From positions 1-32,831 of the forward strand of contig JANOSY010000051.1 of NCBI GenBank assembly GCA_031416075.1: a DNA stretch of 32,831 bases. Direction: 5' to 3'. Shown one piece after another: positions 9,528 to 32,831 of the stretch. Source of the stretch: Candidatus Tenderia sp. (GTDB taxonomy: Bacteria; Pseudomonadota; Gammaproteobacteria; Tenderiales; Tenderiaceae). The position numbers and the translations under genes were made by a program. Under the pieces are notes generated by a model. It worked only from the letters and a program-made list of their open reading frames with translations, made no database searches and was not told the origin of the DNA. The first letter of the stretch is position 1; each line of letters begins with the position of its first letter.

Positions 9528-9693
9528 TTAAATCATACAGAAAAGACTACGCACCAATGGCCAGCAGCCAAGCCCACCACCAAACGACAAACAAACCATT
9601 TTCGCGCAAAATAACCATTTGCGCTACCCAAGGGTGGAACTGTATCCTAATTAATTGTTGGCCATTTGAATGATCGCGTGTATATAAAACCCT

Positions 9694-10446
9694 GTGCTAA
9701 ATCACCTGACAAATAACAAGTATTGGCGCTGGCTGCTGGCAACGGCGATCCTTGCTATCAGCAGTGCAACAGGCGCGGGGACCATCCTCGGCTCCAAACA
9801 CGACTTTACCGGCCTGAACAAGCGGGCCGGGGTCACGGCGATGTCCGGCCTTGCCTTTGCCGATTACGGCACGTCGTGTGTCTACTGCCACGTGCCTGCC
9901 GAAAAAAATGGCGCTGACAGCAGTGAGCTGGGCGGCATTCCCGGCTGGAACCGCTTCCAGCCCGCCACCGGGGGGTATGACCTCTACGACAGCCGCACAC
10001 TCGACAACAAGGTCCGCACCCCCAGTCCTATCAGCCTGCTCTGCCTCTCCTGTCACGATGGCACCATGGGGGTTGATATGACCGTCTTTAAACCTGACGG
10101 CTGGGACAGCAGTACCGACGCCTCTCTACATCTGCGCCTCAACGGCGGTAATGATCTGATGAACTGCGGAAAATGCCACAACGGCGTTGCCGCCCATAGC
10201 ATTGAGATCAAACATCTGGGCACCGATCTGCAAAACGATCACCCCATATCGATGGAGTACGCCGGACTCAACGCCAAAGATCCCGATTATCGCCCGGTGG
10301 ATAGCGCCTACGGTTTTGACAATGGCGTCAAGATCTACGACAACCGTGTTGAGTGTGCCACCTGCCACAACGTCCATAACCCTGACGTCAACATCCTGTT
10401 GCGTACCGGTGCCGAGCATCTGTGTGAAACATGCCACATCAAGTAA
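9694..10446 (+). CDS. Secreted pentaheme c-type cytochrome, OmcE-like
   Basis: Signal peptide; CVYCH, CLSCH, CGKCH, CATCH and CETCH; motifs SKHDF, WNR, SLLCLSCHDG, LGTDLQNDHP and the terminal doubled-CxxCH unit match my recollection of Geobacter OmcE. Confidence 0.9.
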   Translation: MLNHLTNNKYWRWLLATAILAISSATGAGTILGSKHDFTGLNKRAGVTAMSGLAFADYGTSCVYCHVPAEKNGADSSELGGIPGWNRFQPATGGYDLYDSRTLDNKVRTPSPISLLCLSCHDGTMGVDMTVFKPDGWDSSTDASLHLRLNGGNDLMNCGKCHNGVAAHSIEIKHLGTDLQNDHPISMEYAGLNAKDPDYRPVDSAYGFDNGVKIYDNRVECATCHNVHNPDVNILLRTGAEHLCETCHIK

Positions 10447-11528
10447 GACCGGGCCTGCGCCTTGCCCTTTCTGCTTCGATCATACTACTGCTCACCGCCT
10501 GCGCCACCCCCGCACCACCGCTGGAGAGCGGGATGGATGTTCCGGTCTACCCCGTGCCGCCCGATGCCCCGCGATTCATCTTTGAACGGACCTTGCGCTA
10601 CAACAGCAATGTCGAGTCCCCCAGCCGCATGGAGAGCCTGCGCCGCTACGCTACTGGCAGCAACGATGAAACCAGGGGTCTGGTAAAACCATTTGGTGTC
10701 AGCGCACGGCATGGCCGGGTCTACGTTACCGATACGGTACAGCGCGCCGTCATCATGTTTGACCTGAAAAACGGGGTATATAAAGAGTTTGGTAGCGACA
10801 AGCCTGCTGAGCTGGGCAAACCCACCGGCATTGCCATCTCCTCTCTAAATGAGCTGTTTGTTGCGGACGTGAGCCACCGCCGCGTGGCAGTTTTTAATCT
10901 CAACGGCGATTTTTTACGTCTGCTTGGCGGGCCAGCGCTGTTTCAGCGCCCTACCGGCATTGCAGTATCCCCTGACGGTACAAAACTATATGTGGTGGAT
11001 ACAGGCGGCGTCGACAGCAGTGATCACCATATGTACATTCTCGACGCCCTCTCCGGCACTCTCATCACCACCGTGGGTGGGCGTGGCACCCAGCCAGGCC
11101 AGTTCAACCTGCCACTACAGGCAGACACCGCGCCTGACGGTACCGTCTACGTCGTCGACAAAGGCAACTTCCGTATCTCCGCCTTTAACCGTGAAGGGGA
11201 GTATCTACGCAGCTTTGGCTCCATTGGTCGTTATCCGGGTCAATTTTTCAGCCCCAAAGGGATTGCCACCGACCCCGAGGGCAATGTTTACGTGGTGGAT
11301 ACCGCCTTTGGCAATGTGCAGGTTTTTAACGCGGCCGGTGAGCTACTGATGGTGATTGGCCAGCGCGGCCAATCAAGCCGTCCTGGCAACTACATGTTGC
11401 CCGCCGGGGTGGCTGTGGATGAGGAGGGGCGGGTCTATATTGCGGACCAGTTTTTCAGGAAGGTGGATATCTATCGCCCCATCCCAACAGCGGAAATACC
11501 CACACCCAAGGTGGGCACACGGGAGTAG
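10431..11528 (+). CDS. NHL-repeat six-bladed beta-propeller lipoprotein
   Basis: Lipobox LLTAC; six NHL repeats (KPFGVS, KPTGIA, RPTGIA, FNLPLQ, FFSPKGIA, YMLPAGVA); 16-nt overlap with the cytochrome gene. Confidence 0.92.
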   Translation: MPHQVRPGLRLALSASIILLLTACATPAPPLESGMDVPVYPVPPDAPRFIFERTLRYNSNVESPSRMESLRRYATGSNDETRGLVKPFGVSARHGRVYVTDTVQRAVIMFDLKNGVYKEFGSDKPAELGKPTGIAISSLNELFVADVSHRRVAVFNLNGDFLRLLGGPALFQRPTGIAVSPDGTKLYVVDTGGVDSSDHHMYILDALSGTLITTVGGRGTQPGQFNLPLQADTAPDGTVYVVDKGNFRISAFNREGEYLRSFGSIGRYPGQFFSPKGIATDPEGNVYVVDTAFGNVQVFNAAGELLMVIGQRGQSSRPGNYMLPAGVAVDEEGRVYIADQFFRKVDIYRPIPTAEIPTPKVGTRE

Positions 11529-11589
11529 TGACAACTTCCGAACGCCTTCGGCCTGTTGCCAGACACTACTACTCACAATGCAGCGCCGA

Positions 11590-14058
11590 TCATGCCCCCT
11601 TTAAGCCCCAGGGCGATTCGGCAATCCACTGCATCAGATCGGCCACCGGTAACGGTCCGCAAACAAAACGCCCCTGCACAGAGTCACACCCCATCTCTTT
11701 GAGCATGTCGTAAATCTGCTGACTTTCGACCCCCTCCGCAACCACCGGGATGCCGATGTTGTGGGCCAGATCAATAATGGAGCGGACAATAACCGTATCG
11801 CTGTTGTCCTTGAGCATACCCAGCACAAAGGATTTGTCGATTTTAAGTTCATCCACCGGCATCTGTTTGAGGTATGAGAGTGATGAGTAGCCCGTACCAA
11901 AATCATCAATGGAGAGCAGAACGCCCATGGCACTGAGGCTGTTAAGCGTCTCCATCGCCCGTGCCGGATCGGCCATAATGGCTGTTTCGGTGATCTCCAG
12001 CCGCAGCCGGCTCGGGTCGCCACAACTCGCCTCGATGAGCCGTGCAACCTTTTCCGGGAAACGGGGATCGTGCAGATTACGTACCGAGAGGTTAACCGCC
12101 ATATCCAGTGGCAATGTATCGTTGTGATACTGCTGGCACTGCGCCAACCCTGCCTGGAGCACCCACATCGTCAGCGGGGTAATCAGCCCGGTCTGTTCTG
12201 CCAGAGGAATAAACTCATCGGGATACATCAGGCCATGGAGTGGATGTTGCCAGCGCACCAGCGCCTCAACACCATAAATTTTGCCACTCTGCATGTTGAT
12301 CTTAGGCTGGTAATAGAGCACCAGTTCATCACGCTCAATCGCGCCACGCAACTCGCCCAGCAGCGCCAGATTCCGCAAACTGTGCTGATCGGTGGTGGGG
12401 TCGTACACGGCGTAACCGGCGTGGTTACGTTTGGCAACGTACATTGCAACATCGGCACGTTGCATCAACGTCACCTCATCCTCCCCATGTTGTGGATAGA
12501 GGGTGACACCTATGCTGGCCCCCACATGCAGCACCTGTTCACCAATCTGAAACGGCTCTTCAATTGCAGCCAATAGTTTTTCGATTATCCGCCGCGCCTG
12601 GACCAGCTCGGTACGCGGCAGCAGTACCGCAAACTCATCCCCTCCCAGGCGGGCGATGGTATCGGATTCACGCAATATACCCCGCACCCGTTGCGCCACC
12701 TGCTGCAGGATGATGTCACCATAATGGTGGCCGAGTGTGTCGTTAATATCCTTGAAGCGGTCAAGGTCCATAATCAGCAGCGCAAACGGTTCGTGGCTCC
12801 GCTGCGCCATCAGCACACTCTGGCGTATCCGATCTGACAGCAGAATACGGTTGGGCAGCTCCGTCAGGCCATCGTGCAGCGCCTGGTGCTCGAGCGCCGC
12901 CGTCTGCTGTTTGGTATCGGTGATATCACGCGCCACCCCCACAAAATAACGTTTGTCGCCAATAAACATCTCACTCAGCGACAGCTCAACAGGGAAGGTG
13001 GTGCCATTTTTATGCAGCCCGATCACTTCAACGTGGTTATTGATCAGCCGCCCTCTGCCCGTCATCAGGTACTGCTCAATATGTAATCTATGCTCCTTGC
13101 GATAGGGCTCCGGGATCAACAGCAGCACATTGGTTCCCAACAACTCCGCTGAACTGTAACCAAACATCTTCTCCACCGCACGGTTGACTGTGTCGATCAT
13201 GCAACTCTCGTCCACCGTAATGATGGCGTCAAAGGCATTCTCAGTCACCGCCCGGATGCGCGCCTCATTGGCCAACAGCTTGCCCTGCATGTCGTTAAAA
13301 ACTGCCGCCACCTCGCCCAGCTCATCACGCCAGTGCAGCGGCAGTTTGACATGGCGTTCACCCGCCCCCACCCGCCCAATAGCCTCACGCAGATAGTTAA
13401 TCGGGGCCAGCACACTAAAACGGAGTGCCACCCAGGCGGTGACCGCAATCACCACCACCAGCAGTGCGGCAATCACCCATAGGTTGCTTCGCATTGAATC
13501 GATGCGGGCAAGGCTCAGCTCTCGCGACATGCTCAGCCGCAGGACACCGCGCAGATGTGAGCTGTCATAACCGTGGCAAGGGAGACACTCTGTCTCAGCA
13601 GGAATGGGATGGAGAACGGTAATCTCCCGGGAGGAGCGCAGATCAACCGCCACCTCCCCCAGTAAAGCATGTTCAAAGGAGTGGTCCACCACATAAGGCT
13701 GCTGCCGTGGCACAGGTTCACGCTCAAAGACCGGGGCGTCCAGATAGCTGTTTACCCGTTTCACTGTATTCAGATCGGTAAATGCCTCGCTACCATCGCT
13801 ACGCAATACCTCAATACTCACAATCCCCGCAGCGCCCTGCATACTGTCAAGCCAGGCACGTGCCTGTGTCCCCTGGCCATTTAGCATCAAAATACGCAGG
13901 CTTGCCAACAGGGTCTGGGCATGGATTTTGGCCTGCTCGACCTCCTCGTTATAGATAGCGCGCTCCAGCTGGCGCTCAACCCAGAGCCCCGCCGCCAGCA
14001 CCACCGCAAAAAGCACTGTAGCCAGCACTAACGCGATACGACTGCCGAGGCTCTTCAT
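11590..14058 (-). CDS. Membrane c-di-GMP cyclase/phosphodiesterase: TM, periplasmic heme-c sensor, TM, HAMP, PAS, GGDEF, EAL
   Basis: Two TM helices flanking CLPCH; HAMP (WRDELGEVAAVFNDM); FixL-like PAS; RESD I-site plus RLGGDEF; EALVRW, DDFGTGYSSL, KIDKSF and AEGVE. Confidence 0.95.
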   Translation of the reverse strand: MKSLGSRIALVLATVLFAVVLAAGLWVERQLERAIYNEEVEQAKIHAQTLLASLRILMLNGQGTQARAWLDSMQGAAGIVSIEVLRSDGSEAFTDLNTVKRVNSYLDAPVFEREPVPRQQPYVVDHSFEHALLGEVAVDLRSSREITVLHPIPAETECLPCHGYDSSHLRGVLRLSMSRELSLARIDSMRSNLWVIAALLVVVIAVTAWVALRFSVLAPINYLREAIGRVGAGERHVKLPLHWRDELGEVAAVFNDMQGKLLANEARIRAVTENAFDAIITVDESCMIDTVNRAVEKMFGYSSAELLGTNVLLLIPEPYRKEHRLHIEQYLMTGRGRLINNHVEVIGLHKNGTTFPVELSLSEMFIGDKRYFVGVARDITDTKQQTAALEHQALHDGLTELPNRILLSDRIRQSVLMAQRSHEPFALLIMDLDRFKDINDTLGHHYGDIILQQVAQRVRGILRESDTIARLGGDEFAVLLPRTELVQARRIIEKLLAAIEEPFQIGEQVLHVGASIGVTLYPQHGEDEVTLMQRADVAMYVAKRNHAGYAVYDPTTDQHSLRNLALLGELRGAIERDELVLYYQPKINMQSGKIYGVEALVRWQHPLHGLMYPDEFIPLAEQTGLITPLTMWVLQAGLAQCQQYHNDTLPLDMAVNLSVRNLHDPRFPEKVARLIEASCGDPSRLRLEITETAIMADPARAMETLNSLSAMGVLLSIDDFGTGYSSLSYLKQMPVDELKIDKSFVLGMLKDNSDTVIVRSIIDLAHNIGIPVVAEGVESQQIYDMLKEMGCDSVQGRFVCGPLPVADLMQWIAESPWGLKGA

Positions 14059-14060
14059 CG

Positions 14061-15290
14061 CTACCAGCCTTGTTCTATATGAGCAACTCCACCAAAACTA
14101 CCCACCCAGAAACTGCCATCCTGGCCGTTGGCCATAGAGAATACACTCTCGGCATAAAGTCCATCGGCAACACCTTTCAGCACAAACCCCTCCTTCTTGG
14201 CATCAAAACGGGCCAACCCCTTGCTGGTGCCAATCCAAAGCTGCTGTTGTTTATCTATATAGAGCATAAATATATGGTTGGCAGGCAGGCCATCCTTGCT
14301 GGTATAGGTCTTCCACTGCTTACCATCAAAACGGGAGAGCCCTGCTCCCCAGGTGCCAGCCCATACCGTGCCATCAGGCTGAACTGCCATCGAAATCACA
14401 TAATTAGGATTGTAAGCATCATTAACCCCCTCCAACCCCTGCTCCTGTTTCTGGCGGGCGTGGTGGGAAGAGGCCTTGCCGGGGTCATTTTTAAACTGGT
14501 TTACATCACGGACCAGCTCATGGTCAGCCCCCAGCCCATCCTTGTGCTGCCAGTTTTGCCACTGGCCATCACGATAGAGCGCAAGCCCCGACTCAGTTGC
14601 AAACCAGATGTCTCCATTTGCCCCCTCCTCTACGCTGTAAACCCAGGGGTTGGGCAGGCCGCCCTGCGTATTCTCCACGGTAAATGTCTGCCACGCACTG
14701 GGGTCATCAAACGCCCCCTGACGAACACGGTTAGTCCCAGACCAGGTAGCAATCCAGACATCACCATTTTTGGCCTTGATAACATCGTAGACAAACTGGT
14801 CCGCCAGCCCTTCCGGAATATTCAGGGTGGACCACACATTGGTTGTGGTATTCAGCAGCGCCAGGCCACCACCATAGGTACCCACCACCAGCGACTCACC
14901 CAGGCGACTAATGTGAAAAATCCCGTTTGAGAGCAGACCGGAGTTTTTATTGTTATAGAGCTGGTAATCATCGGTTTCAGTGTCATAACGGATCACCCCG
15001 CCCGACGTGCCGACCCAGATATACTTACCGTCAGCAAACATGCTTTTAACATTACGGTTACCCACGCGAAAATGGCTGAAGCGTGGCTCCGCTGCAGAGG
15101 CCTGCGGCCCCTCTCCCGGCAAAAGCGCCACTTTGCGATAAGGCGAAGCGCCCTCCGCACCGTTGGCGGCCAGCTGCCCTGTTGTTGTGGCGGCTTGATT
15201 ATCACTGTTTTGCCCCAACTGATACGCCCCCACCACCAGCCCAACAGCGACTACCCCGCCGACAACCATAAGCCTTGGATTAATTTTCAT
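14061..15290 (-). CDS. Two-component-regulator-type beta-propeller protein with N-terminal membrane anchor or signal
   Basis: Repeated W(V/I)(G/A)T..G blades with GL..N.V linkers. Start moved to ATG 15290 (MKINPRLMVVGG), which overlaps the upstream stop by 11 nt. Confidence 0.85.
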   Translation of the reverse strand: MKINPRLMVVGGVVAVGLVVGAYQLGQNSDNQAATTTGQLAANGAEGASPYRKVALLPGEGPQASAAEPRFSHFRVGNRNVKSMFADGKYIWVGTSGGVIRYDTETDDYQLYNNKNSGLLSNGIFHISRLGESLVVGTYGGGLALLNTTTNVWSTLNIPEGLADQFVYDVIKAKNGDVWIATWSGTNRVRQGAFDDPSAWQTFTVENTQGGLPNPWVYSVEEGANGDIWFATESGLALYRDGQWQNWQHKDGLGADHELVRDVNQFKNDPGKASSHHARQKQEQGLEGVNDAYNPNYVISMAVQPDGTVWAGTWGAGLSRFDGKQWKTYTSKDGLPANHIFMLYIDKQQQLWIGTSKGLARFDAKKEGFVLKGVADGLYAESVFSMANGQDGSFWVGSFGGVAHIEQGW

Positions 15291-16461
15291 CTGTTTTACC
15301 TGATACAGCCTCTGCGGGCTTTTTCTCTGCGACCACTGCCGTGCCCAGGCGGGTGACGCCACCACGACTGCCCACCCACACCTCACTCTCCGACACCGCC
15401 ACAATGGCGTAGACGTGGTCTGACAACACCCCTTGTTCACGTCCATAACGATACCACTGCTGGCCATCAAAGCGGCTCACGCCATGGTCCGTGCCAAACC
15501 AGAGCGAACCATCCCGCCCCTCGGCAATGCTATACACCACATTACCCGCCAGGCCATCCTGGGTGGTGTAGTTGCGCCACTGCTTGTCAGCGCCTGCGTT
15601 GTAGGCATCGTAATAACTAATACCACCACCCCAGGTACCGGCCCAGACCCTGTCCTTGCCATCCACATAGATAGAGAGCACATAGCTGGGGTTGTAGGTG
15701 GACTGTCCATCACTGACCACATTCAGGTCGTGGCGAGAGCGTGTGCCCAACCCGGTATTCAAACTGATGGGCAGATTGCCCACATTGGCCGCCCCCAGCC
15801 CCTCTTTGTGGGTCCAGGCGCGCCAGGTCTGACCATCAAACATCGACACCCCCCCCTCTGTGCCAAACCAGACCTGCTGTTTCGAATCGACAGCAATACC
15901 GTAGACCCACTCATTCACCAGCTCTTTCAGATACGTTTTAATCTGCCCACCACCAGGGGGAATAAAGTTGGCCCCCGCCCAAGTGCCGATCCAGAGACCA
16001 CCATCGGCCTGCTCAGCAAAGCTGTATACCCAATAGTCAGCCAAACCGTGCATCGGGAAGAGCACTTGCCATTTGCCATCGACGTAGTGGGAGGCACCGC
16101 CACCGTTGGTGCCAAACCATTTGCCCTTGTCACGATCAACAAGCAGGGCAAAAACATACTCATTGGCCAGCCCTTCAACCCGGGTAAAGGTGGTACGCAG
16201 ATCCTGGCTGCCGAGATCAACCTCATGCACACCCACAGAAGTACCCACCCAGACACTGTCACCCTTACCTTTCTCACCAGACTCCAGCGCCAAAGAGCGG
16301 ACATAGGTCTCCGGGCCAACCTCAAAGGCGTCCAGCACATGCCAAGGATCGACTACAGCCACCTTGCTCTCTGTCGACTTACTGGCCGAAACAACTGTTT
16401 TTGAGTCAGAACAGGCACTTATCAGCAACAATGCCATCAACAACGGTAAAATACGCATCAA
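15280..16461 (-). CDS. Two-component-regulator-type beta-propeller lipoprotein (paralogue of the downstream gene)
   Basis: Lipobox LISAC; repeats WVGT, WFGT, WIGT, WAGT with GLANEYV, GLADYWV and GLAGNVV linkers. Confidence 0.88.
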   Translation of the reverse strand: MMRILPLLMALLLISACSDSKTVVSASKSTESKVAVVDPWHVLDAFEVGPETYVRSLALESGEKGKGDSVWVGTSVGVHEVDLGSQDLRTTFTRVEGLANEYVFALLVDRDKGKWFGTNGGGASHYVDGKWQVLFPMHGLADYWVYSFAEQADGGLWIGTWAGANFIPPGGGQIKTYLKELVNEWVYGIAVDSKQQVWFGTEGGVSMFDGQTWRAWTHKEGLGAANVGNLPISLNTGLGTRSRHDLNVVSDGQSTYNPSYVLSIYVDGKDRVWAGTWGGGISYYDAYNAGADKQWRNYTTQDGLAGNVVYSIAEGRDGSLWFGTDHGVSRFDGQQWYRYGREQGVLSDHVYAIVAVSESEVWVGSRGGVTRLGTAVVAEKKPAEAVSGKTDEN

Positions 16462-25509: not shown

Positions 25510-26505
25510 ATGACTGAAGTCGCCATACCCGCCGTACCCACTGCCAATAACAGCCGCCAGATCGCCACGCTGCGCCACCACATTCAGCAGACGATTGTGG
25601 GGCAAAACCGACTGATCGAGCGGTTATTGGTTGCGCTGCTGGCAGACGGCCACATCCTGCTCGAAGGGCTGCCGGGGCTGGCCAAGACCACCGCTGTGCA
25701 TACCCTGGCCGAAGGCATGGCGTTGAGTTTCCAGCGCATCCAGTTCACCCCGGACCTGATCCCCGGCGACATCACCGGCAGCGACATCTTCCTGGCACGT
25801 GAAGGCGAGCTTAAGTTTATCGAAGGGCCGATCTTCCACGAGATCATTCTCGCTGATGAGATCAACCGCGCCCCACCCAAGGTGCAGTCAGCACTGCTCG
25901 AAGCGATGCAGGAGCGGCAGGTCACCACCACCGGCACCACCCGCAAGCTACCGCAGATCTTCCAGGTCATCGCCACCCAAAACCCACTCGAGCAGGAGGG
26001 GACCTACCCACTGCCCGAGGCACAGCTCGACCGTTTTTTGATGAAGATAGCGCTGGGCTACCCAAGCCCGGAGGATGAGCTGGAGATCCTGCGCCGTGAA
26101 ACCCGCAAACAGCAGCAGCCACATGGGGAGAGCCGCCCGGAGATCATCAGTGGCGACGACATTCTCACCGCCCGTCGCGCCGTCAACCAAATACATATGG
26201 ATGAGATGCTGGAGCGCTACATCGTCACCCTCGTCAACGCCACCCGCACCCCGGCACGCTGGTGGCCGGAGGCCGCCGAATGGCTCAGCTACGGTGCCTC
26301 ACCCCGCGCCACCCTTGCCCTGGCCCGCAGCGCCCGCGCCCTGGCCTATCTGCGTCAGCGCGATTTTGTTGAACCCGCCGACATCATCGACCTTGCTGAC
26401 GACGTCCTCAACCACCGTATCGGCCTGAGCTTTGCAGCACGGGCGGCGGGTGTTACCCGCAAACAACTAATTTCCGGGCTACTGGAGCGCGTTCCTGTAC
26501 CCTAA
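25510..26505 (+). CDS. moxR: MoxR-family AAA+ ATPase
   Basis: LLEGLPGLAKT, RIQFTPDL, LADEINRAPPKVQSALLEAM, ATQNP.EQEGTYPLPEAQLDRF and GASPR. Confidence 0.95.
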   Translation: MTEVAIPAVPTANNSRQIATLRHHIQQTIVGQNRLIERLLVALLADGHILLEGLPGLAKTTAVHTLAEGMALSFQRIQFTPDLIPGDITGSDIFLAREGELKFIEGPIFHEIILADEINRAPPKVQSALLEAMQERQVTTTGTTRKLPQIFQVIATQNPLEQEGTYPLPEAQLDRFLMKIALGYPSPEDELEILRRETRKQQQPHGESRPEIISGDDILTARRAVNQIHMDEMLERYIVTLVNATRTPARWWPEAAEWLSYGASPRATLALARSARALAYLRQRDFVEPADIIDLADDVLNHRIGLSFAARAAGVTRKQLISGLLERVPVP

Positions 26506-26580
26506 CCCTAAACAGTGAAACAGGATTACCTGCGTTTGGGTACCTACGAGCCACCACTAACACCACACCACTATATATAG

Positions 26581-27462
26581 ATGCAACTACCATCACTGCT
26601 CACCTCCGAGGATTTGGAACTGCTGCGTTTCCAGGCGCGCGGGCTGCTGGACGGCCGTATCAGCGGCAACAGCCCACTCAGCGGCGAGCAGCGCTCCCGC
26701 TACCGTGGCATGGGCATGGAGCTGGAGGAGTTACGCGCCTACCAGCAGGGTGATGATGTCCGCCACATCGCCTGGCGCACCAGCGCCCGCAGCCACCTGC
26801 CAATCACAAAGGTGTTCCGGACTGAGCAGCAACAGCGGGCGCTGCTACTGGTTGAGCAGCACCCAGGGATGTTTTTTGCCACCACTGGCCGACTCAAGGC
26901 GACCTGTGCCGCCCACGTCACCGCCCTGCTCACCTTTGCCCTGCTGGCGGAGCGTGGCGAGGCGGGTGGCGTGGTAGCACATCAACATCTGCACCACTTT
27001 GGTTACAGCAGCGGGCTGGATCAGGGGCTGGCGCTGATCGGCAGCGCCGCTGCCGCAGGGCAGCCGGCCACGGCCATCCCCACCCGCACCTTGTTAACCG
27101 AGGCACAACGACTCTGCGGACGGGGCGATACCCTGTTTATCATCAGCGACTTTAGCCGCTGGGATACCTCGCTGACCGCACATCTACTGCAACTGGGGGA
27201 GCAGCGCCAACTCCACGCCATCCAGATTATTGACCGTGGCGAACAGAACCTGCCCGCCATCGGCAAGCTGCGACTGCGCTCCCCCTACTCCGGCAAAACA
27301 GCCATCATCGACAGCAACAATCCGGTACTGCGACAACAGTACAGCGCCGCGATGGCGGCACAGCAGCAGCAGATCGAATCACTGTTACAACGCTGCGGCG
27401 TGCACCACACCCGGCTGCATACCGATGCCGACCTCTTCCTGACCCTGGCCAGATCACTATGA
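26581..27462 (+). CDS. DUF58 domain protein
   Basis: G.GME.EELRAYQ.GDDVRHI.W..SAR motif, IISDF; follows moxR. Confidence 0.92.
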   Translation: MQLPSLLTSEDLELLRFQARGLLDGRISGNSPLSGEQRSRYRGMGMELEELRAYQQGDDVRHIAWRTSARSHLPITKVFRTEQQQRALLLVEQHPGMFFATTGRLKATCAAHVTALLTFALLAERGEAGGVVAHQHLHHFGYSSGLDQGLALIGSAAAAGQPATAIPTRTLLTEAQRLCGRGDTLFIISDFSRWDTSLTAHLLQLGEQRQLHAIQIIDRGEQNLPAIGKLRLRSPYSGKTAIIDSNNPVLRQQYSAAMAAQQQQIESLLQRCGVHHTRLHTDADLFLTLARSL

Positions 27463-27944
27463 ACACGCCCCTGAGTGACGACGAGCTCAAACAGATCACC
27501 CAGCAGCTGGCCGGGCTGGAGCTGCCGCCCGCCCCCGACTGGCAACCGCTGATCATCGCCACCCTCGTGGTCCTGATAGCGCTGCTGCTGGCCGTGGCCT
27601 TGATCTATCTCCGCAGCCGCCGCCAACAGCCCGGCCACATAGACGACCAATCACGAGAGGCACTGCACCAGCTGCACCTGTTGCAACAACAGTGGCTGCA
27701 GCAGAGTATCGACGACCACGATGCCGCCTACCGCCTGGCAACACTGTTGCGGCTGGGGCTGGGGCTGAACCAACTGACCAACACCGCCCCCCCGGCACTT
27801 ATCGAACAACAGCAACGGTGGCAGCAGCTACAACAGCAATTAATCCAGCTGCGCTACACCCCGGCGGAGAGCCGCCCCCCCTTGAGCGCCGATCTGTTTA
27901 CACAGGTTGAGACGTGGCTGATACAGGGCCGCCCCGAATGTTGA
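27459..27944 (+). CDS. Small single-TM protein of MoxR/Bat clusters (DUF4381-like)
   Basis: LELPPAPDW followed by a TM helix and RSRR; overlaps both neighbours; typical position in such clusters. Confidence 0.7.
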   Translation: MNTPLSDDELKQITQQLAGLELPPAPDWQPLIIATLVVLIALLLAVALIYLRSRRQQPGHIDDQSREALHQLHLLQQQWLQQSIDDHDAAYRLATLLRLGLGLNQLTNTAPPALIEQQQRWQQLQQQLIQLRYTPAESRPPLSADLFTQVETWLIQGRPEC

Positions 27945-28912
27945 TCCTGGCCGCCCCCTGGTGGTTGCTCTTTTTACCGCTGCCGTGGCTGCTGTGGCGG
28001 GCACGCTTCAAACAGCCACAGCCCAATAGCCATCACCGCGCCATTACCCATCCACAAACCGAGCTTCTGATGCGTCTCAGCCAAGCTTCCACGTCCGGAC
28101 AAAAACCGTGGCTCTGGCTGATTGGTGCGGCGCTCTTGTTTCTAGCCTTGGCCCGGCCACAGTGGTGGGACAACCAGCAGCACGAGGGGCGTAACTTTAT
28201 GCTGGCGCTGGACAGCTCCAGCTCCATGCGGGCGGAGGATTTTTCCGACAATGGTACCCCCGTCAGCCGGATGCAGATGGTGAAACGTGTGGTGGATACC
28301 TTTATCAGCCAACGCCACGGCGACCGGCTGGGGCTGATTGTATTTGGTGATGACGCCTTTACGCTGGCACCACTCACCAGCGACATCACACTGATTCGTC
28401 ACCACCTCCAACAGCTCCACGACGGCATGGCGGGCCAGAGGACCGCCCTCGGCCAGGCCATTGCACTGGGGGTGCAGCGGCTGCGCGACGAAGATCAACG
28501 GTCACGCATCCTGGTACTACTGACCGACGGCAGCAATACCGCTGGCACCATACACCCATTGCAGGCACTGGCGATGGCCAAGGGCAATGGCGTCCGCATC
28601 TACACCATCGGCATCGGCTCTCATAATCAAGTGATGTTCCCACGCGGCCCGGTACAGCAGGCGCAGCTGGCCAGCGTGCCGATGGATGAGACACTGCTGC
28701 AACAGCTGGCGCAGGAGAGTGGTGGCCGCTACTATCGGGCAACGGCCCCAGGCGAACTTGATAACATCATCACCGACATTGAACAGCTTGAAACCATCAC
28801 CCTCACCGATGACGAAGTACGCCCCTATGAGTGGTACAGCGTGCCGTTAATCCTCGGACTCTGCTCTCTGGCACTGAGTGGCTGGCGGGAGCGGCGCGAG
28901 GTGTTGCCATGA
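27938..28912 (+). CDS. batA: BatA-like vWA domain membrane protein
   Basis: PWWLLFL N-terminus, ALARPQW, MIDAS DSSSSM, GDRLGLIVFG, LLTDG and IYTIGIG. Start set at ATG 27938. Confidence 0.85.
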   Translation: MLILAAPWWLLFLPLPWLLWRARFKQPQPNSHHRAITHPQTELLMRLSQASTSGQKPWLWLIGAALLFLALARPQWWDNQQHEGRNFMLALDSSSSMRAEDFSDNGTPVSRMQMVKRVVDTFISQRHGDRLGLIVFGDDAFTLAPLTSDITLIRHHLQQLHDGMAGQRTALGQAIALGVQRLRDEDQRSRILVLLTDGSNTAGTIHPLQALAMAKGNGVRIYTIGIGSHNQVMFPRGPVQQAQLASVPMDETLLQQLAQESGGRYYRATAPGELDNIITDIEQLETITLTDDEVRPYEWYSVPLILGLCSLALSGWRERREVLP

Positions 28913-30651
28913 TGGAGTGGTTAACGTGGCAACAGCCGTGGTGGCTGCTATTGGCCGCCATTCCGTGGCTGGCACGGCTGGTGTCGAAGCGTTGGCATGG
29001 ACGACCGCAGAGCCAGCTGGAGCAGTTCATCGCCCGCCACCTCTGGCCGCAGCTGCTCAGTGGCGCACCCAGCGCCAGCCACTATCACACCCCGCTGTTT
29101 ATGGTGGCGTGGCTGCTTGCCTGTGTCGCACTGGCCGGCCCAACACTGCAGACAGCGCAAAATAGCCATGAGATCAAACAGCAGGCCAACATTGCCATCG
29201 TGCTCGATATCTCCCCCTCCATGCGGGTGCAGGATATCCTGCCCAGCCGCCTCGACTACAGCAAACGCCTGCTCAGCGAGCTGGCGCAACAGCTCCGTGG
29301 CCAGCAGGTGGCGCTGATTGTCTTTTCCGCCAACGCCTACACCGTGCTGCCACTCACCCGCGACAACCAGATACTCACGCAGATGATCGAGGCCATGGAC
29401 CCCACCTTGGCCAGCGTCACCGGTTCCAATCTCAGCCGCGCCCTGCAACTTGCACAACAGGCACTGGCCGCGCCGCCACTGGCTAGTGGCACAACAGCTG
29501 GCGGCAAAACAGCCAACGGATTGGTACTGCTGATCAGCGATGGCGAGATCCACGACAGCGGTGCCCTTGCCGCCAGCCGCCAGCTCCGGCAAGCGGGCCA
29601 CATGCTCTACACCCTTGGCGTCGGCACCGAACAGGGTGGCCCCGTGCCCTACGCCACGGGCCGACTGGTCACGGACAACAACAGACTGATCACCTCCCGA
29701 CTCAACAGGGAGACACTACGGACCCTGGCCCAGAGTGGCGGTGGCCACTACGCCGACCTGCGCCCGGAGGTCTGGCCCGCGATCATGCAGCAAGTTGATG
29801 CCCTTAAACAGCCCATCGAGGGCCAGCAGCAGCGCCGTACCGGCACCCCACTCTTCCCTTGGTTTCTAGCGCTGGCCCTGGCGCTCTTCCTCTGGAACGG
29901 CGTGCGCCGCCCCAACATCGTCGCCCTATTCCTGTTATTGCCACTCATCGGCAACAGCCCGGCCACCGAGGCCGCCCCCTGGAGTGAAGCCAAAGGGCTG
30001 GCGCTGCTCGATCAGGGGCAAAACCAAGCCGCCCTCGATATCTACAACACCCTTAACAGCTACAGCGGTCACCTTGGCCGAGGCGTTGCCGCCTACCGTT
30101 TTGGCCAGTGGCAACCGGCGCTGAAGGCCTTTGACCGTGCCCTCACACTCGCCACCACCCCCCAGGAGAAGGGGCTGGCCGCCTACAATCGTGGCAACGC
30201 CCTAGTCCAGCTCAATCAGATAGATGACGCCACCCGCGCCTACAAAACTGCGCTCCACTGGCTACCCAACCACCCCAAAAGCAACCACAACCTCACCCTG
30301 TTACAGCGCAACCCACCCAAAAGTGGTGAGCGCAAAGGCAGCAGCAAACACGAACGCCAAGACGAAAGTGGCAGTGAATTGAGCGACCGCAGCGGCAGTG
30401 ACAACAGCAGTGTCCGCCCTAACCCTGCCCTAACGGGACAAACAGGCCAACAGACAACCACCCAGCAGCGGGCACTGCAACAGAGCCTGACCCAGTGGGG
30501 CCAGCAGCGTAACAGCCTCAGCACCGCTGCCACGCCCAGCCAGCAACAGCTCAATACATTGAAGGAGGATTACCAGACCATGCTCAAACAGCGCTTTGCT
30601 GCTGAAGATATCAGCGATGCAGCCGGTCTGGTGGTAGAAAAACCATGGTAA
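28909..30651 (+). CDS. BatB/BatC-like vWA plus TPR protein
   Basis: QPWWLL, ALAGP, MIDAS DISPSM, PSRL, LISDGE, GVGTEQGGP, TPR (AYNRGNAL) and a Q/S-rich tail. Start set at ATG 28909 or 28912. Confidence 0.85.
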   Translation: MMEWLTWQQPWWLLLAAIPWLARLVSKRWHGRPQSQLEQFIARHLWPQLLSGAPSASHYHTPLFMVAWLLACVALAGPTLQTAQNSHEIKQQANIAIVLDISPSMRVQDILPSRLDYSKRLLSELAQQLRGQQVALIVFSANAYTVLPLTRDNQILTQMIEAMDPTLASVTGSNLSRALQLAQQALAAPPLASGTTAGGKTANGLVLLISDGEIHDSGALAASRQLRQAGHMLYTLGVGTEQGGPVPYATGRLVTDNNRLITSRLNRETLRTLAQSGGGHYADLRPEVWPAIMQQVDALKQPIEGQQQRRTGTPLFPWFLALALALFLWNGVRRPNIVALFLLLPLIGNSPATEAAPWSEAKGLALLDQGQNQAALDIYNTLNSYSGHLGRGVAAYRFGQWQPALKAFDRALTLATTPQEKGLAAYNRGNALVQLNQIDDATRAYKTALHWLPNHPKSNHNLTLLQRNPPKSGERKGSSKHERQDESGSELSDRSGSDNSSVRPNPALTGQTGQQTTTQQRALQQSLTQWGQQRNSLSTAATPSQQQLNTLKEDYQTMLKQRFAAEDISDAAGLVVEKPW

Positions 30652-32294
30652 ACAGATTCACCACCCTGCTCATCCTGCTACTGCTTGGCATCACCAGCGC
30701 CTGCGCCGCCGAGCTAACCGCTCGCGTAGACCGCCATCAACTCAACCAGGAGGAGCATATTCTCCTCACCCTGGAGCTGATCAACAGCGATACCCGACTG
30801 CGTGCCGAAGGGGTAAAGCCCAACATCGACCTGACACTGTTAAGTGACAACTTCACCCTCAGCCGTCCCAGCGCCAGCAACCACTACAACATCTATCAGG
30901 GGCGTGGCCGTTCCCGCTCCACCCTCACCGTCACCCTTTTTCCAAAAGCCGCCGGTCGTTTCACCCTCCCCCCCTTTGAGGTCGATGGCCTACGCACCCA
31001 ACCAATCACCGTTGAGGTCACCGCCGCCAGCAGCGCCGCCCCCCCGGCGCTGTTTGTCCGCAGTGGCAGCAACAAAAACTCACTCTGGGTCAACGAACAG
31101 CTGGTGGTCTACCTCGACCTCTACCACCGCGTAACCATCAACAAGGCAAGCCTGGGCGACAACCTGGAGACAGAACCGACCCAGATCGAACTCCTGCCCT
31201 ACTGGAAACTGGAACCCAGCCGCCGCCAGGAGCAGTTTCAAGGCTACACCTATGATGTCGAACGCACCGCCTGGGCCATCTTCCCGCAGACCAGCGGCAG
31301 ACTCACCGTACAGCTCCCCGACGTCTGGGTGGTCAGCCAACAGGCTGGCGAGACCCAACAGCGTCTCGAACATCAGCGCCTCAACGTTGAAGTCAAACCA
31401 CTGCCCGCCGACCTGCCCGCCGACATCATCATTGGCAAACCCACCATTGAACAGACCCGGCTGCCACAACAGAACCCACAGCACCAGCTCACCCACTGGA
31501 CCGTCACCGTCACCGCCCCCGTTGCCGTCACCACCCTACCCGAGCGGCTGCCCACTGCCGCCTTGCCCGAGGGGCTAAGGCTCTATGCCGATACCGCCCG
31601 CCGCGATACCACCCTGGACAGCAGCGGCATCATCGATCGTGCCGACTACGTGCTCTCCATCATGCCGCAGCAGTCGGGCCAGTTTGAACTGCCCCCGCTA
31701 CAGATCCCCTACTTCGATCCAATACTGGGCCAGGCGGACTACATCGAACTGCCCGGACAAACCCTCAACATCAACCCCGCCCCACTGCCCAAAAGCCAGA
31801 ACAGCCCACTGCCCGCCATCACCACACCCACCCCACAGGGGGGGCTCAACATCAAACTGGGCGACTGGTTCTGGCCCACCACCAGCGCCCTGTTTGCCAC
31901 ACTCTGGCTCATCACCCTGCAACGTGGACGGCGCCAACGTCCAGCCCCCGCCACAACCACGCCACAGGAGACAGCCGCACCTGCCCCCCAGACACCACGC
32001 CACCCACTACAGCAACAGCTACTCAAGGCACTCAACAGCACAACACTGGAAGCGGGACTCACACAGTGGCAAAAAGATCACCCCGACGAACAACATGTCG
32101 CCACCGCCGTGCGGGCAGTACAACGCCTCTGTTACGGCAAGGGGCAGACAGATGATGACTCAGCAACACAGCAGGTCAACAAAGCCATCACCATACTCAA
32201 CCACCCCGCCATCACCACCCGTGAAAAAAAACCAGACCCGTGGCAGCCTGAGGCGTTTACAGTGGGTAAAATAATAAAAAATAAACCACATTGA
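30645..32294 (+). CDS. batD: BatD-like oxygen-tolerance family protein
   Basis: Signal peptide, ARVDR, repeated Ig-like segments (FPKAAGRFTLP, FPQTSGRLT, PQQSGQFELP) and a C-terminal TM; ends the MoxR/Bat cluster. Confidence 0.8.
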   Translation: MVNRFTTLLILLLLGITSACAAELTARVDRHQLNQEEHILLTLELINSDTRLRAEGVKPNIDLTLLSDNFTLSRPSASNHYNIYQGRGRSRSTLTVTLFPKAAGRFTLPPFEVDGLRTQPITVEVTAASSAAPPALFVRSGSNKNSLWVNEQLVVYLDLYHRVTINKASLGDNLETEPTQIELLPYWKLEPSRRQEQFQGYTYDVERTAWAIFPQTSGRLTVQLPDVWVVSQQAGETQQRLEHQRLNVEVKPLPADLPADIIIGKPTIEQTRLPQQNPQHQLTHWTVTVTAPVAVTTLPERLPTAALPEGLRLYADTARRDTTLDSSGIIDRADYVLSIMPQQSGQFELPPLQIPYFDPILGQADYIELPGQTLNINPAPLPKSQNSPLPAITTPTPQGGLNIKLGDWFWPTTSALFATLWLITLQRGRRQRPAPATTTPQETAAPAPQTPRHPLQQQLLKALNSTTLEAGLTQWQKDHPDEQHVATAVRAVQRLCYGKGQTDDDSATQQVNKAITILNHPAITTREKKPDPWQPEAFTVGKIIKNKPH

Positions 32295-32693: not shown

Positions 32694-32831
32694 CTAGTGT
32701 ACTGTAACAAATAGTATGATCATATATAATAGCGCTACTCCTTCCTTATTTTCTGGTGCGCTGACTATGCCTGTCCCCGTTGCTATCTCACTCACAGAAG
32801 AAGAACGCCAAGAATTTCATCGCTGTTGTCG
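32694..32831 (+). mobile_element. Probable left end of an IS630-family insertion sequence (truncated by the window edge)
   Basis: CTAGTGTACTGTAAC resembles CTAG-target IS630 ends; ORF from ATG 32767 reads MPVPVAISLTEEERQEFHRCC, like the L(T/S)EEER N-termini of IS630 transposases. Only 21 codons are visible. Confidence 0.5.

Follow-up and report, generated by a model that had tools for sequence, protein, structure and literature searches.

A 32,831-nucleotide (nt) stretch of Candidatus Tenderia sp. DNA (JANOSY010000051.1; hereafter the window, which is one whole contig) carries a gene predicted to encode a Sec-exported c-type cytochrome with the fold of OmcE, the nanowire subunit of Geobacter sulfurreducens, and with five heme-binding CxxCH motifs. 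A first-pass annotation had called the product an OmcE-like tetraheme cytochrome. The open reading frame (ORF), the signal-like N terminus and all motifs quoted in that annotation were recovered at 9694–10446 on the forward strand and in the same order, but a fifth motif, CGKCH at residues 158–162, had been overlooked; with it, the protein is predicted to carry five hemes and not four. We tentatively read it as a cell-bound component of an electron-transfer chain. The gene and its heme-binding features are as follows.

9694..10446, forward strand: five-heme OmcE-superfamily c-type cytochrome gene, GTG start, 250 amino acids (aa), from the ORF and its translation
9799..9801, forward strand: codon of His36 (KHD motif), 6–10 residues past the likely signal-peptide cleavage site
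9877..9891, forward strand: CxxCH 1, CVYCH, residues 62–66, followed by VPA where the superfamily has xPH
10042..10056, forward strand: CxxCH 2, CLSCH, residues 117–121, counterpart of OmcE heme 2
10165..10179, forward strand: extra CxxCH, CGKCH, residues 158–162, an insertion relative to OmcE
10354..10368, forward strand: CxxCH 4, CATCH, residues 221–225, followed by His228 (NVH)
10423..10437, forward strand: CxxCH 5, CETCH, residues 244–248, from the translation and the family alignment

Residues 1 to about 29 read as a signal-like hydrophobic N terminus, after which the motifs run in the order ILGSKHDF, CVYCH, PGWNR, CLSCHDG, LGTDLQNDHP, CATCHNVH and CETCHIK. A phmmer search of all PDB chains matched the G. 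sulfurreducens OmcE filament (7tfs_A) at an E value of 3.7e-17, aligning query residues 14–250 with chain residues 9–232, and Desulfuromonas soudanensis OmcE (9yuq_N) at 3e-12 in two stretches; the third row was noise (E 7). Four of the CxxCH motifs (62–66, 117–121, 221–225 and 244–248) aligned colinearly with those of OmcE, and 7tfs_A has a gap opposite the fifth. Pfam and NCBIfam returned generic multiheme domains only, such as Paired_CXXCH_1. An AlphaFold2 model built on a 146-row alignment (mean predicted local distance difference test score 89.2, predicted template modelling score 0.83) had 7tfs as its sole Foldseek match in the PDB at E ≤ 0.001 (E 5.4e-7, TM-scores 0.42/0.50). Compared with 48,161 representative chains by VIA-align, the model matched 7tfs_A at Z 12.5 (177/202 residues aligned at a root-mean-square deviation of 3.3 Å and 33% identity), after which scores dropped to Z 3.0 for MtrA and OmcS and then to 2.2. 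Because phmmer, Foldseek and VIA-align agree on 7tfs, membership of the predicted protein in the OmcE fold superfamily is well supported. The homology proposed from motifs thus extends over the full length of the protein, both in the pairwise sequence alignment and in the predicted fold. In these sequence and structure matches to the PDB, the only characterised members of the fold are nanowire subunits.

To examine the heme ligands we compared the protein with a close family, comprising the query and its 120 best relatives (121 rows, 59–95% identity), and with the wider superfamily. A HMMER search of 1.84 billion cluster representatives gave 2,891 matches at E ≤ 1e-3 and 826 at E ≤ 1e-10; the superfamily alignment holds 138 sequences, namely the listed representatives of 190–310 aa plus UetA from the same genome. 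Five CxxCH motifs, including the extra one at 158–162, are present in 118 of the 121 close-family members, so the tetraheme reading was overstated and the window protein is a five-heme variant. Exactly ten histidines are invariant or nearly so in the close family (36, 66, 121, 146, 162, 168, 183, 225, 228 and 248), which is enough for five bis-His hemes; His174 is kept in 107/121 rows.

The superfamily ligands are conserved in the window protein with one exception. His36 is found in 138/138 representatives (and in 120/121 close relatives), the NDHP histidine His183 in 138/138 and the CHxVH histidine His228 in 136/138. A further histidine three residues past the first CxxCH, in the pattern CHxPH, is kept in 129/138 representatives, comprising 83/86 without the extra motif and 46/52 with it. 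In the window protein the position is taken by Ala69, and the close family has CH.P, lacking the histidine, against the main superfamily pattern. Thus, the likeness to OmcE drawn from motifs holds for the KHD, NDHP and CHxVH histidines and for four CxxCH motifs, and fails for CHxPH. With that ligand lost and His146 and His168 present instead, heme ligation must partly differ from that in OmcE. All close-family rows (121/121) have Met50 and Met129, which are not invariant in the superfamily, and Met187 is kept in 120/121 rows. Taken with the loss of the CHxPH histidine, the conserved methionines may point to His/Met ligation and higher potentials.

In the OmcE filament, the second histidine ligand of heme 2 is supplied by the neighbouring subunit (PMC12203936, PMC9473688, PMC12954529). 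The modelled 7tfs chain begins at residue 30, one residue ahead of the histidine aligned with His36, a start that would suit an N-terminal histidine acting as the donated ligand.

A CxxCH aligns at residues 158–162 in 52/138 representatives, 39 of which have five such motifs in all. In a tree of the 138 rows (FastTree only, midpoint root, no bootstrap), a split with Shimodaira–Hasegawa-like support of 97 separated 50 rows, 38 of them five-heme and including the window protein, from 88 rows, 85 of them four-heme and including UetA. Because of this split, we regard the pentaheme as a member of an old five-heme clade and not as a recent copy of UetA. Similar proteins have been described: Petersen et al. 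2026, who solved a second OmcE filament, report that many PSI-BLAST matches have an additional CxxCH motif, that AlphaFold3 models of five-CxxCH OmcE-like proteins keep the insulated heme chain and add a more exposed heme, and that the five-CxxCH forms may be ‘an uncharacterized nanowire family’ (PMC13712944). Gain of heme motifs in the OmcE family has also been noted elsewhere (bioRxiv 10.1101/2025.05.29.656830, PMC11492766). Going by the published description, we infer that the window protein belongs with the five-CxxCH set of Petersen et al. (PMC13712944).

The pentaheme is not the nearest counterpart of OmcE in its own genome. Searches with the window protein gave two weaker paralogous matches on another contig (C91), at a cluster of the uet type.

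C91, L065:2892-17615, reverse strand: uet-type cluster, from Pfam and similarity searches
C91, L065:16740-17615, reverse strand: UetA-like tetraheme gene that keeps CHTPH

The cluster encodes UetA, a peptidyl-prolyl isomerase (PPIase), a 608-aa UetC-like protein without a Pfam match, three c7-type trihemes, a 514-aa protein, two NHL proteins, a 905-aa multiheme protein, ResB/CcsA-like proteins and a TPR protein. UetA matched 7tfs_A at E 3.8e-25 and 9yuq_N at E 7.5e-25, and is a better OmcE match than the window protein; the two paralogues share 28% identity (E 6e-21). No second UetC-like gene was found in the genome, the single copy lying beside UetA on C91. Judged by sequence, UetA is the genome's best nanowire candidate and the closer OmcE orthologue. 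Polymer formation by UetA or UetJ was raised as a speculation by Eddie et al. 2022 (bioRxiv 10.1101/2022.05.06.490989).

Two related loci placed OmcE-like genes in comparable surroundings. In a Magnetococcales metagenome-assembled genome (MAG; locus L061), a UetA-like tetraheme gene stands by an NHL gene, a PPIase gene and a weak UetC homologue (E 8e-9). In a Sterolibacterium MAG (L058:9878-19283), two five-heme and one four-heme OmcE-like genes share one cluster with genes for a nine-heme protein, a TPR protein, two NHL proteins and a protein of 753 aa. Because five- and four-heme genes occur together there, the five-heme forms are tied to OmcE-type machinery. We did not call the 753-aa protein a barrel, as it had no BLASTP similarity to UetC and no Pfam match.

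Around the pentaheme gene, the window holds a conserved module with the following features.

10431..11528, forward strand: NHL six-bladed beta-propeller lipoprotein gene, lipobox LLTAC (Pfam NHL, E 5.9e-26)
8331..9527, reverse strand: tri1, class-I triheme cytochrome c, 398 aa, signal peptide, three Cytochrome_CBB3 domains
7369..8277, reverse strand: tri2, class-I triheme cytochrome c, 302 aa from the first start codon, no signal peptide, three CBB3-type domains
8340..8348, reverse strand: A9 run just before the tri1 stop, candidate slippery site fusing tri1 to tri2
11590..14058, reverse strand: HAMP-PAS-GGDEF-EAL gene, 822 aa, with CLPCH in a periplasmic segment between two predicted membrane helices
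14061-15470 and 15280-16461, reverse strand: two Reg_prop (two-component regulator propeller) ORFs, overlapping by ~190 nt from their first start codons
17402..24481, reverse strand: System I cytochrome c maturation genes ccmI, H, G, F, E, C, B and A (Pfam), ~7 kb from the cytochrome gene

The start of the NHL gene overlaps the end of the cytochrome gene by 16 nt, and tri1 and tri2 are divergent from this pair. Past the NHL gene, the order is GGDEF-EAL, two Reg_prop ORFs, a small cytochrome c gene, a thioredoxin-like gene, the ccm operon, an FGE-sulfatase-like gene and MoxR-DUF58-BatA-BatB-BatD. The true start of the downstream Reg_prop ORF is probably later than its first start codon. From its CLPCH motif, the GGDEF-EAL protein is a candidate heme-based redox sensor controlling cyclic di-guanosine monophosphate (c-di-GMP) and adjoining the cytochrome module; a heme-containing c-di-GMP phosphodiesterase has been described in the corresponding cluster of a relative (bioRxiv 10.1101/2022.05.06.490989). 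A promoter and terminator scan of 9450–11700 gave counts no higher than in shuffled sequence.

To gauge how far this arrangement is conserved, we fetched 61 related loci, 58 of which are 62–97% identical. The MAGs holding those 58 are labelled Ca. Tenderia, Chromatiaceae/Chromatiales or Gammaproteobacteria, and with the closest relatives labelled as Ca. Tenderia or Chromatiales MAGs the gammaproteobacterial host proposed at first pass is supported. The NHL gene lies directly 3′ of the cytochrome gene in 58/61 loci. The trihemes were found in 56/61, 53 times adjacent and divergent and three times at a distance of up to 6 kb; of the five misses, three are loci cut by a contig end and two are the most distant relatives. 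The GGDEF-EAL gene was found in 40/61 loci, with some of the 61 ending before its position is reached. Within the window's own order, 16 of 17 genomes carry the pentaheme gene, as do all seven of the high-quality ones.

The module matches the secondary c-type cytochrome cluster that Eddie et al. 2022 described in Ca. T. electrophaga, which includes ‘a pentaheme (ALP54653.1)’ along with two trihemes and an NHL protein (bioRxiv 10.1101/2022.05.06.490989), and is conserved in Tenderiales-like Gammaproteobacteria. The same preprint reports that both the uet and the secondary cluster are conserved across Tenderiales.

We looked for an outer-membrane conduit in the module, as Petersen et al. selected nanowire-capable OmcE genes by a large barrel together with a propeller lipoprotein (PMC13712944). 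The NHL gene provides the beta-propeller lipoprotein. No large outer-membrane barrel was found among the 25 window ORFs scanned with Pfam, no large barrel gene in five variant neighbourhoods (L017, L022, L023, L033 and L041), and no barrel gene in the module at the 58 syntenic loci examined with the window proteins. By the selection of Petersen et al., the gene would therefore not be classed as nanowire-capable, which tempers the suggestion that this organism builds heme filaments from it.

The set of MoxR-DUF58-BatA-BatB-BatD genes at 25510-32294 closes the contig, which ends at 32831. Bat genes adjoin the uet cluster in Ca. T. electrophaga (Eddie et al. 2022, bioRxiv 10.1101/2022.05.06.490989, Figure 2 legend). 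Here, the uet cluster sits inside a 110-kb contig, with ~22 kb past its TPR gene; because of this position, the Bat–uet linkage may have been lost in this genome, or a split in the assembly may account for it.

The two triheme genes appear to be joined at the level of expression. The tri2 frame is −1 relative to tri1 and open 31 nt before the tri1 stop, and tri2 has no signal peptide. We compared the junction in the window and in 55 related loci with both triheme genes (56 in total). The −1 relation held in 53/56 loci, and the tri2 frame was open before the tri1 stop in 56/56. Within 40 nt of that stop, a run of exactly A9 was present in 41 of the loci, A10 in four and A8 in one; four more (L021, L025, L029 and L036) have EKK or KKS in the −1-frame peptide, further upstream and outside the stretch scanned. 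After the run, the −1 frame reads KK[ST], and in many loci a conserved PSTV..AAG peptide comes next, lying upstream of every start codon. No indel is listed where DNA contigs of three sequencing runs span the A9 run. A hexaheme tri1–tri2 fusion thus probably arises, through programmed −1 frameshifting or through slippage in transcription. Natural in-frame fusions at L010, L011 and L024, which had scored a frame difference of 0, were rejected: at L010 and L011 the tri2 match probably falls on a paralogous tri1 domain, because it lies within ~200 nt of the tri1 match and is only 40–49% identical, and the L024 locus is rearranged. In a literature search on Tenderia and frameshifting, the one match concerned Cyc2 iron oxidation, judged by its title and abstract.

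What, then, does the pentaheme do? We tentatively favour an electron-transfer component that stays bound to the cell, on the outer membrane's periplasmic face or its surface, acting as a monomer or short oligomer. The protein would be exported by Sec and matured by Ccm, folding into the four-heme core chain of OmcE with one side heme in the insertion between heme 2 and NDHP. It would be made together with the product of the overlapping NHL gene and would dock on that lipoprotein at the outer membrane. The alanine at +2 after the lipid-bearing cysteine of the lipoprotein fits outer-membrane sorting by the Lol rule of Escherichia coli. Electrons would then be relayed between the Uet porin–cytochrome system (UetA, UetC and UetJ), whose genes lie elsewhere, and the divergent class-I tri- or hexaheme cytochromes, as part of the electron-uptake chain of a chemolithoautotroph. 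In this scheme, where the protein sits, what it partners, which way electrons flow and how far it oligomerises are all points that we infer.

Several observations bear on the physiology assumed here. The genome has a RuBisCO large subunit gene. A model for ccoN, of the cbb3 oxidase, had a best match of 227 bits in it, the model's cut-off being 583. The relative Ca. T. electrophaga grows on cathodes as an electroautotroph. On biocathodes, its pentaheme gene Tel_16670 (ALP54653.1) was transcribed at 7.96 log counts per million compared with 9.57 for UetA, without a response to electrode potential (false discovery rate (FDR) 0.44; PMC5371394 supplement). Tel_16670 would be the orthologue of the window gene by the description of its cluster, rather than by sequence comparison.

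Some of our findings sit uneasily with a monomer or short oligomer. The predicted fold is that of a filament subunit, and a filament would explain the evidence nearly as well; N-terminal His36 does not vary across the superfamily (138/138). Beta-propeller lipoproteins also occur in OmcE-type clusters (PMC13712944), the UetC barrel, although encoded elsewhere, could serve both paralogues, and the L058 cluster joins five- and four-heme OmcE-like genes with two NHL genes.

These points would fit a pentaheme that polymerises head-to-tail as OmcE does, giving a long extracellular filament in which heme 2 is completed by a histidine of the neighbouring subunit. The extra heme would be solvent-exposed, making a ‘leaky’ wire; in Tenderiales, electrons would flow inward from minerals or cathodes, and the UetC barrel or some other pore would serve for export. 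This is possible, and we hold it as the foremost alternative, though not a probable one. It draws on the OmcE fold (VIA-align Z 12.5), on retention of all the core CxxCH motifs, four in number, and of three superfamily distal histidines out of four, N-terminal His36 among them, on a beta-propeller lipoprotein partner, a paralogue of the UetI-like protein and of a kind that OmcE clusters also have (PMC13712944), and on the AlphaFold3 models of five-CxxCH proteins, in which the insulated chain of the proposed ‘uncharacterized nanowire family’ is kept (PMC13712944). However, the module lacked a barrel at the 58 syntenic loci examined with the window proteins and in the five variant neighbourhoods, and the one UetC-type barrel in the genome stands next to UetA. 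The CHxPH histidine, kept in 129/138 representatives, is an alanine here, so the ligand set differs from that of OmcE. Transcript levels of Tel_16670 below those of UetA in the relative point the same way, as weak evidence (PMC5371394).

It is unlikely that the pentaheme is a terminal subunit of a UetA filament, forming its tip or basal anchor. A shared fold would fit the end of the polymer, and the exposed extra heme would contact mineral, electrode or periplasmic cytochromes. The genome does have both a tetraheme UetA in a porin cluster and a five-heme paralogue, both clusters are conserved across Tenderiales (bioRxiv 10.1101/2022.05.06.490989), L058 has five- and four-heme forms in one cluster, and an altered histidine set might be expected where a subunit cannot both give and take a ligand. 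Yet the pentaheme is only 28% identical to UetA, belongs to a separate, old five-heme clade (FastTree support 97) rather than being a recent UetA duplicate, has its own lipoprotein partner, and is encoded on a contig other than that of UetA.

Least probable of all, and in our view very unlikely, is a periplasmic redox protein outside extracellular electron transfer, serving as a reductase donor or as redox input to the c-di-GMP enzyme: the gene adjoins a GGDEF-EAL gene with a periplasmic CxxCH and sensor-like Reg_prop genes, and expression in the relative did not respond to electrode potential (FDR 0.44; PMC5371394), but GGDEF-EAL is found in only 40/61 loci (some of which end first) while NHL and the trihemes stay, and the sole characterised members of the fold are nanowire subunits.

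Cell-bound electron transfer therefore remains the reading that we carry forward. Beyond it, a broader proposal can be made that we consider doubtful: Tenderiales may build OmcE-type wires that carry electrons inward, with UetA forming an insulated core and the pentaheme a second, ‘leaky’ wire or a terminal subunit whose exposed heme meets a mineral, a cathode or a periplasmic partner, and with a ligand set (CHxPH histidine lost; His146, His168, Met50 and Met129) tuned to high uptake potentials.

To our knowledge, the cytochrome nanowires with solved structures all come from metal reducers and from two archaea. The occurrence of the OmcE family outside Desulfobacterota, which the first-pass annotation had put forward, is supported by its presence in this gammaproteobacterium, but it is not new: OmcE homologues outside Desulfobacterota, including in Pseudomonadota, and OmcE-like proteins with five CxxCH motifs were published in 2026 (PMC13712944). 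The matching passages of literature naming both Tenderia and OmcE do not connect the two, and the Eddie preprint was the sole literature match for ALP54653 or Tel_16670. On the strength of these searches, the specific link of the Tenderiales pentaheme to OmcE appears absent from the searched literature, although the kind of protein is already known. The order-wide pentaheme and the tetraheme UetA, both of the OmcE superfamily, are two concrete nanowire subunit candidates in Tenderia, which bears on long-distance electron movement by the electroautotroph Ca. Tenderia in biofilms on cathodes. As a four- and five-heme pair, with and without the CHxPH ligand, they also offer a natural comparison for what makes an OmcE-fold protein polymerise.

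Among known systems, G. sulfurreducens OmcE (7TFS) has in common with the window protein four colinear CxxCH motifs, the KHD, NDHP and CHxVH histidines and a similar length. The window protein differs in the fifth CxxCH, inserted between heme 2 and NDHP, in the alanine that replaces the CHxPH histidine, and in the family-invariant His146 and His168. No barrel or glycosylation genes lie near the window gene, and its host belongs to an aerobic, autotrophic electron-uptake lineage, unlike the metal-reducing host of OmcE. The polymer is known for G. sulfurreducens OmcE, whereas the window protein is known here from gene and model. In a minimal OmcE cluster, genes for two multiheme cytochromes and for two propeller lipoproteins are said ‘always’ to accompany those for OmcE and a large barrel (PMC13712944). 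The cluster of D. soudanensis WTL (PDB 9YUQ) likewise holds beta-propeller lipoproteins (PMC13712944); compared with a minimal cluster of this type, the window module has one propeller and no barrel. OmcZ, the ‘leaky’ nanowire of G. sulfurreducens, offers a parallel in idea only, that of one solvent-exposed heme per subunit, which has been suggested for five-heme OmcE-like proteins (PMC13712944); OmcZ shows no homology and was absent from all of our searches.

Within the genome, UetA shares the superfamily with the pentaheme, and each has an NHL lipoprotein partner, the window NHL protein being 36% identical to the UetI-like protein (E 1e-48) and 24% to the UetH-like one. UetA differs in its four hemes, its retained CHTPH, its better match to OmcE and its place next to the PPIase and the 608-aa UetC barrel. 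The secondary cluster of Eddie et al. agrees with the module in the genes present and in their order: ccm genes, thioredoxin, two sensor-domain proteins, the heme c-di-GMP phosphodiesterase, NHL, the pentaheme, two trihemes and also a cytochrome with a partial CcoP domain. The passages describing that cluster do not relate ALP54653.1 to OmcE, and orthology with the window protein follows from synteny and description rather than an alignment. The five-CxxCH set of Petersen et al., offered as what may be a new family of OmcE nanowires, resembles the window protein in being OmcE-like, of similar length and endowed with one extra CxxCH. Among representatives with the extra motif, 46/52 keep the CHxPH histidine that the window's close family has lost.

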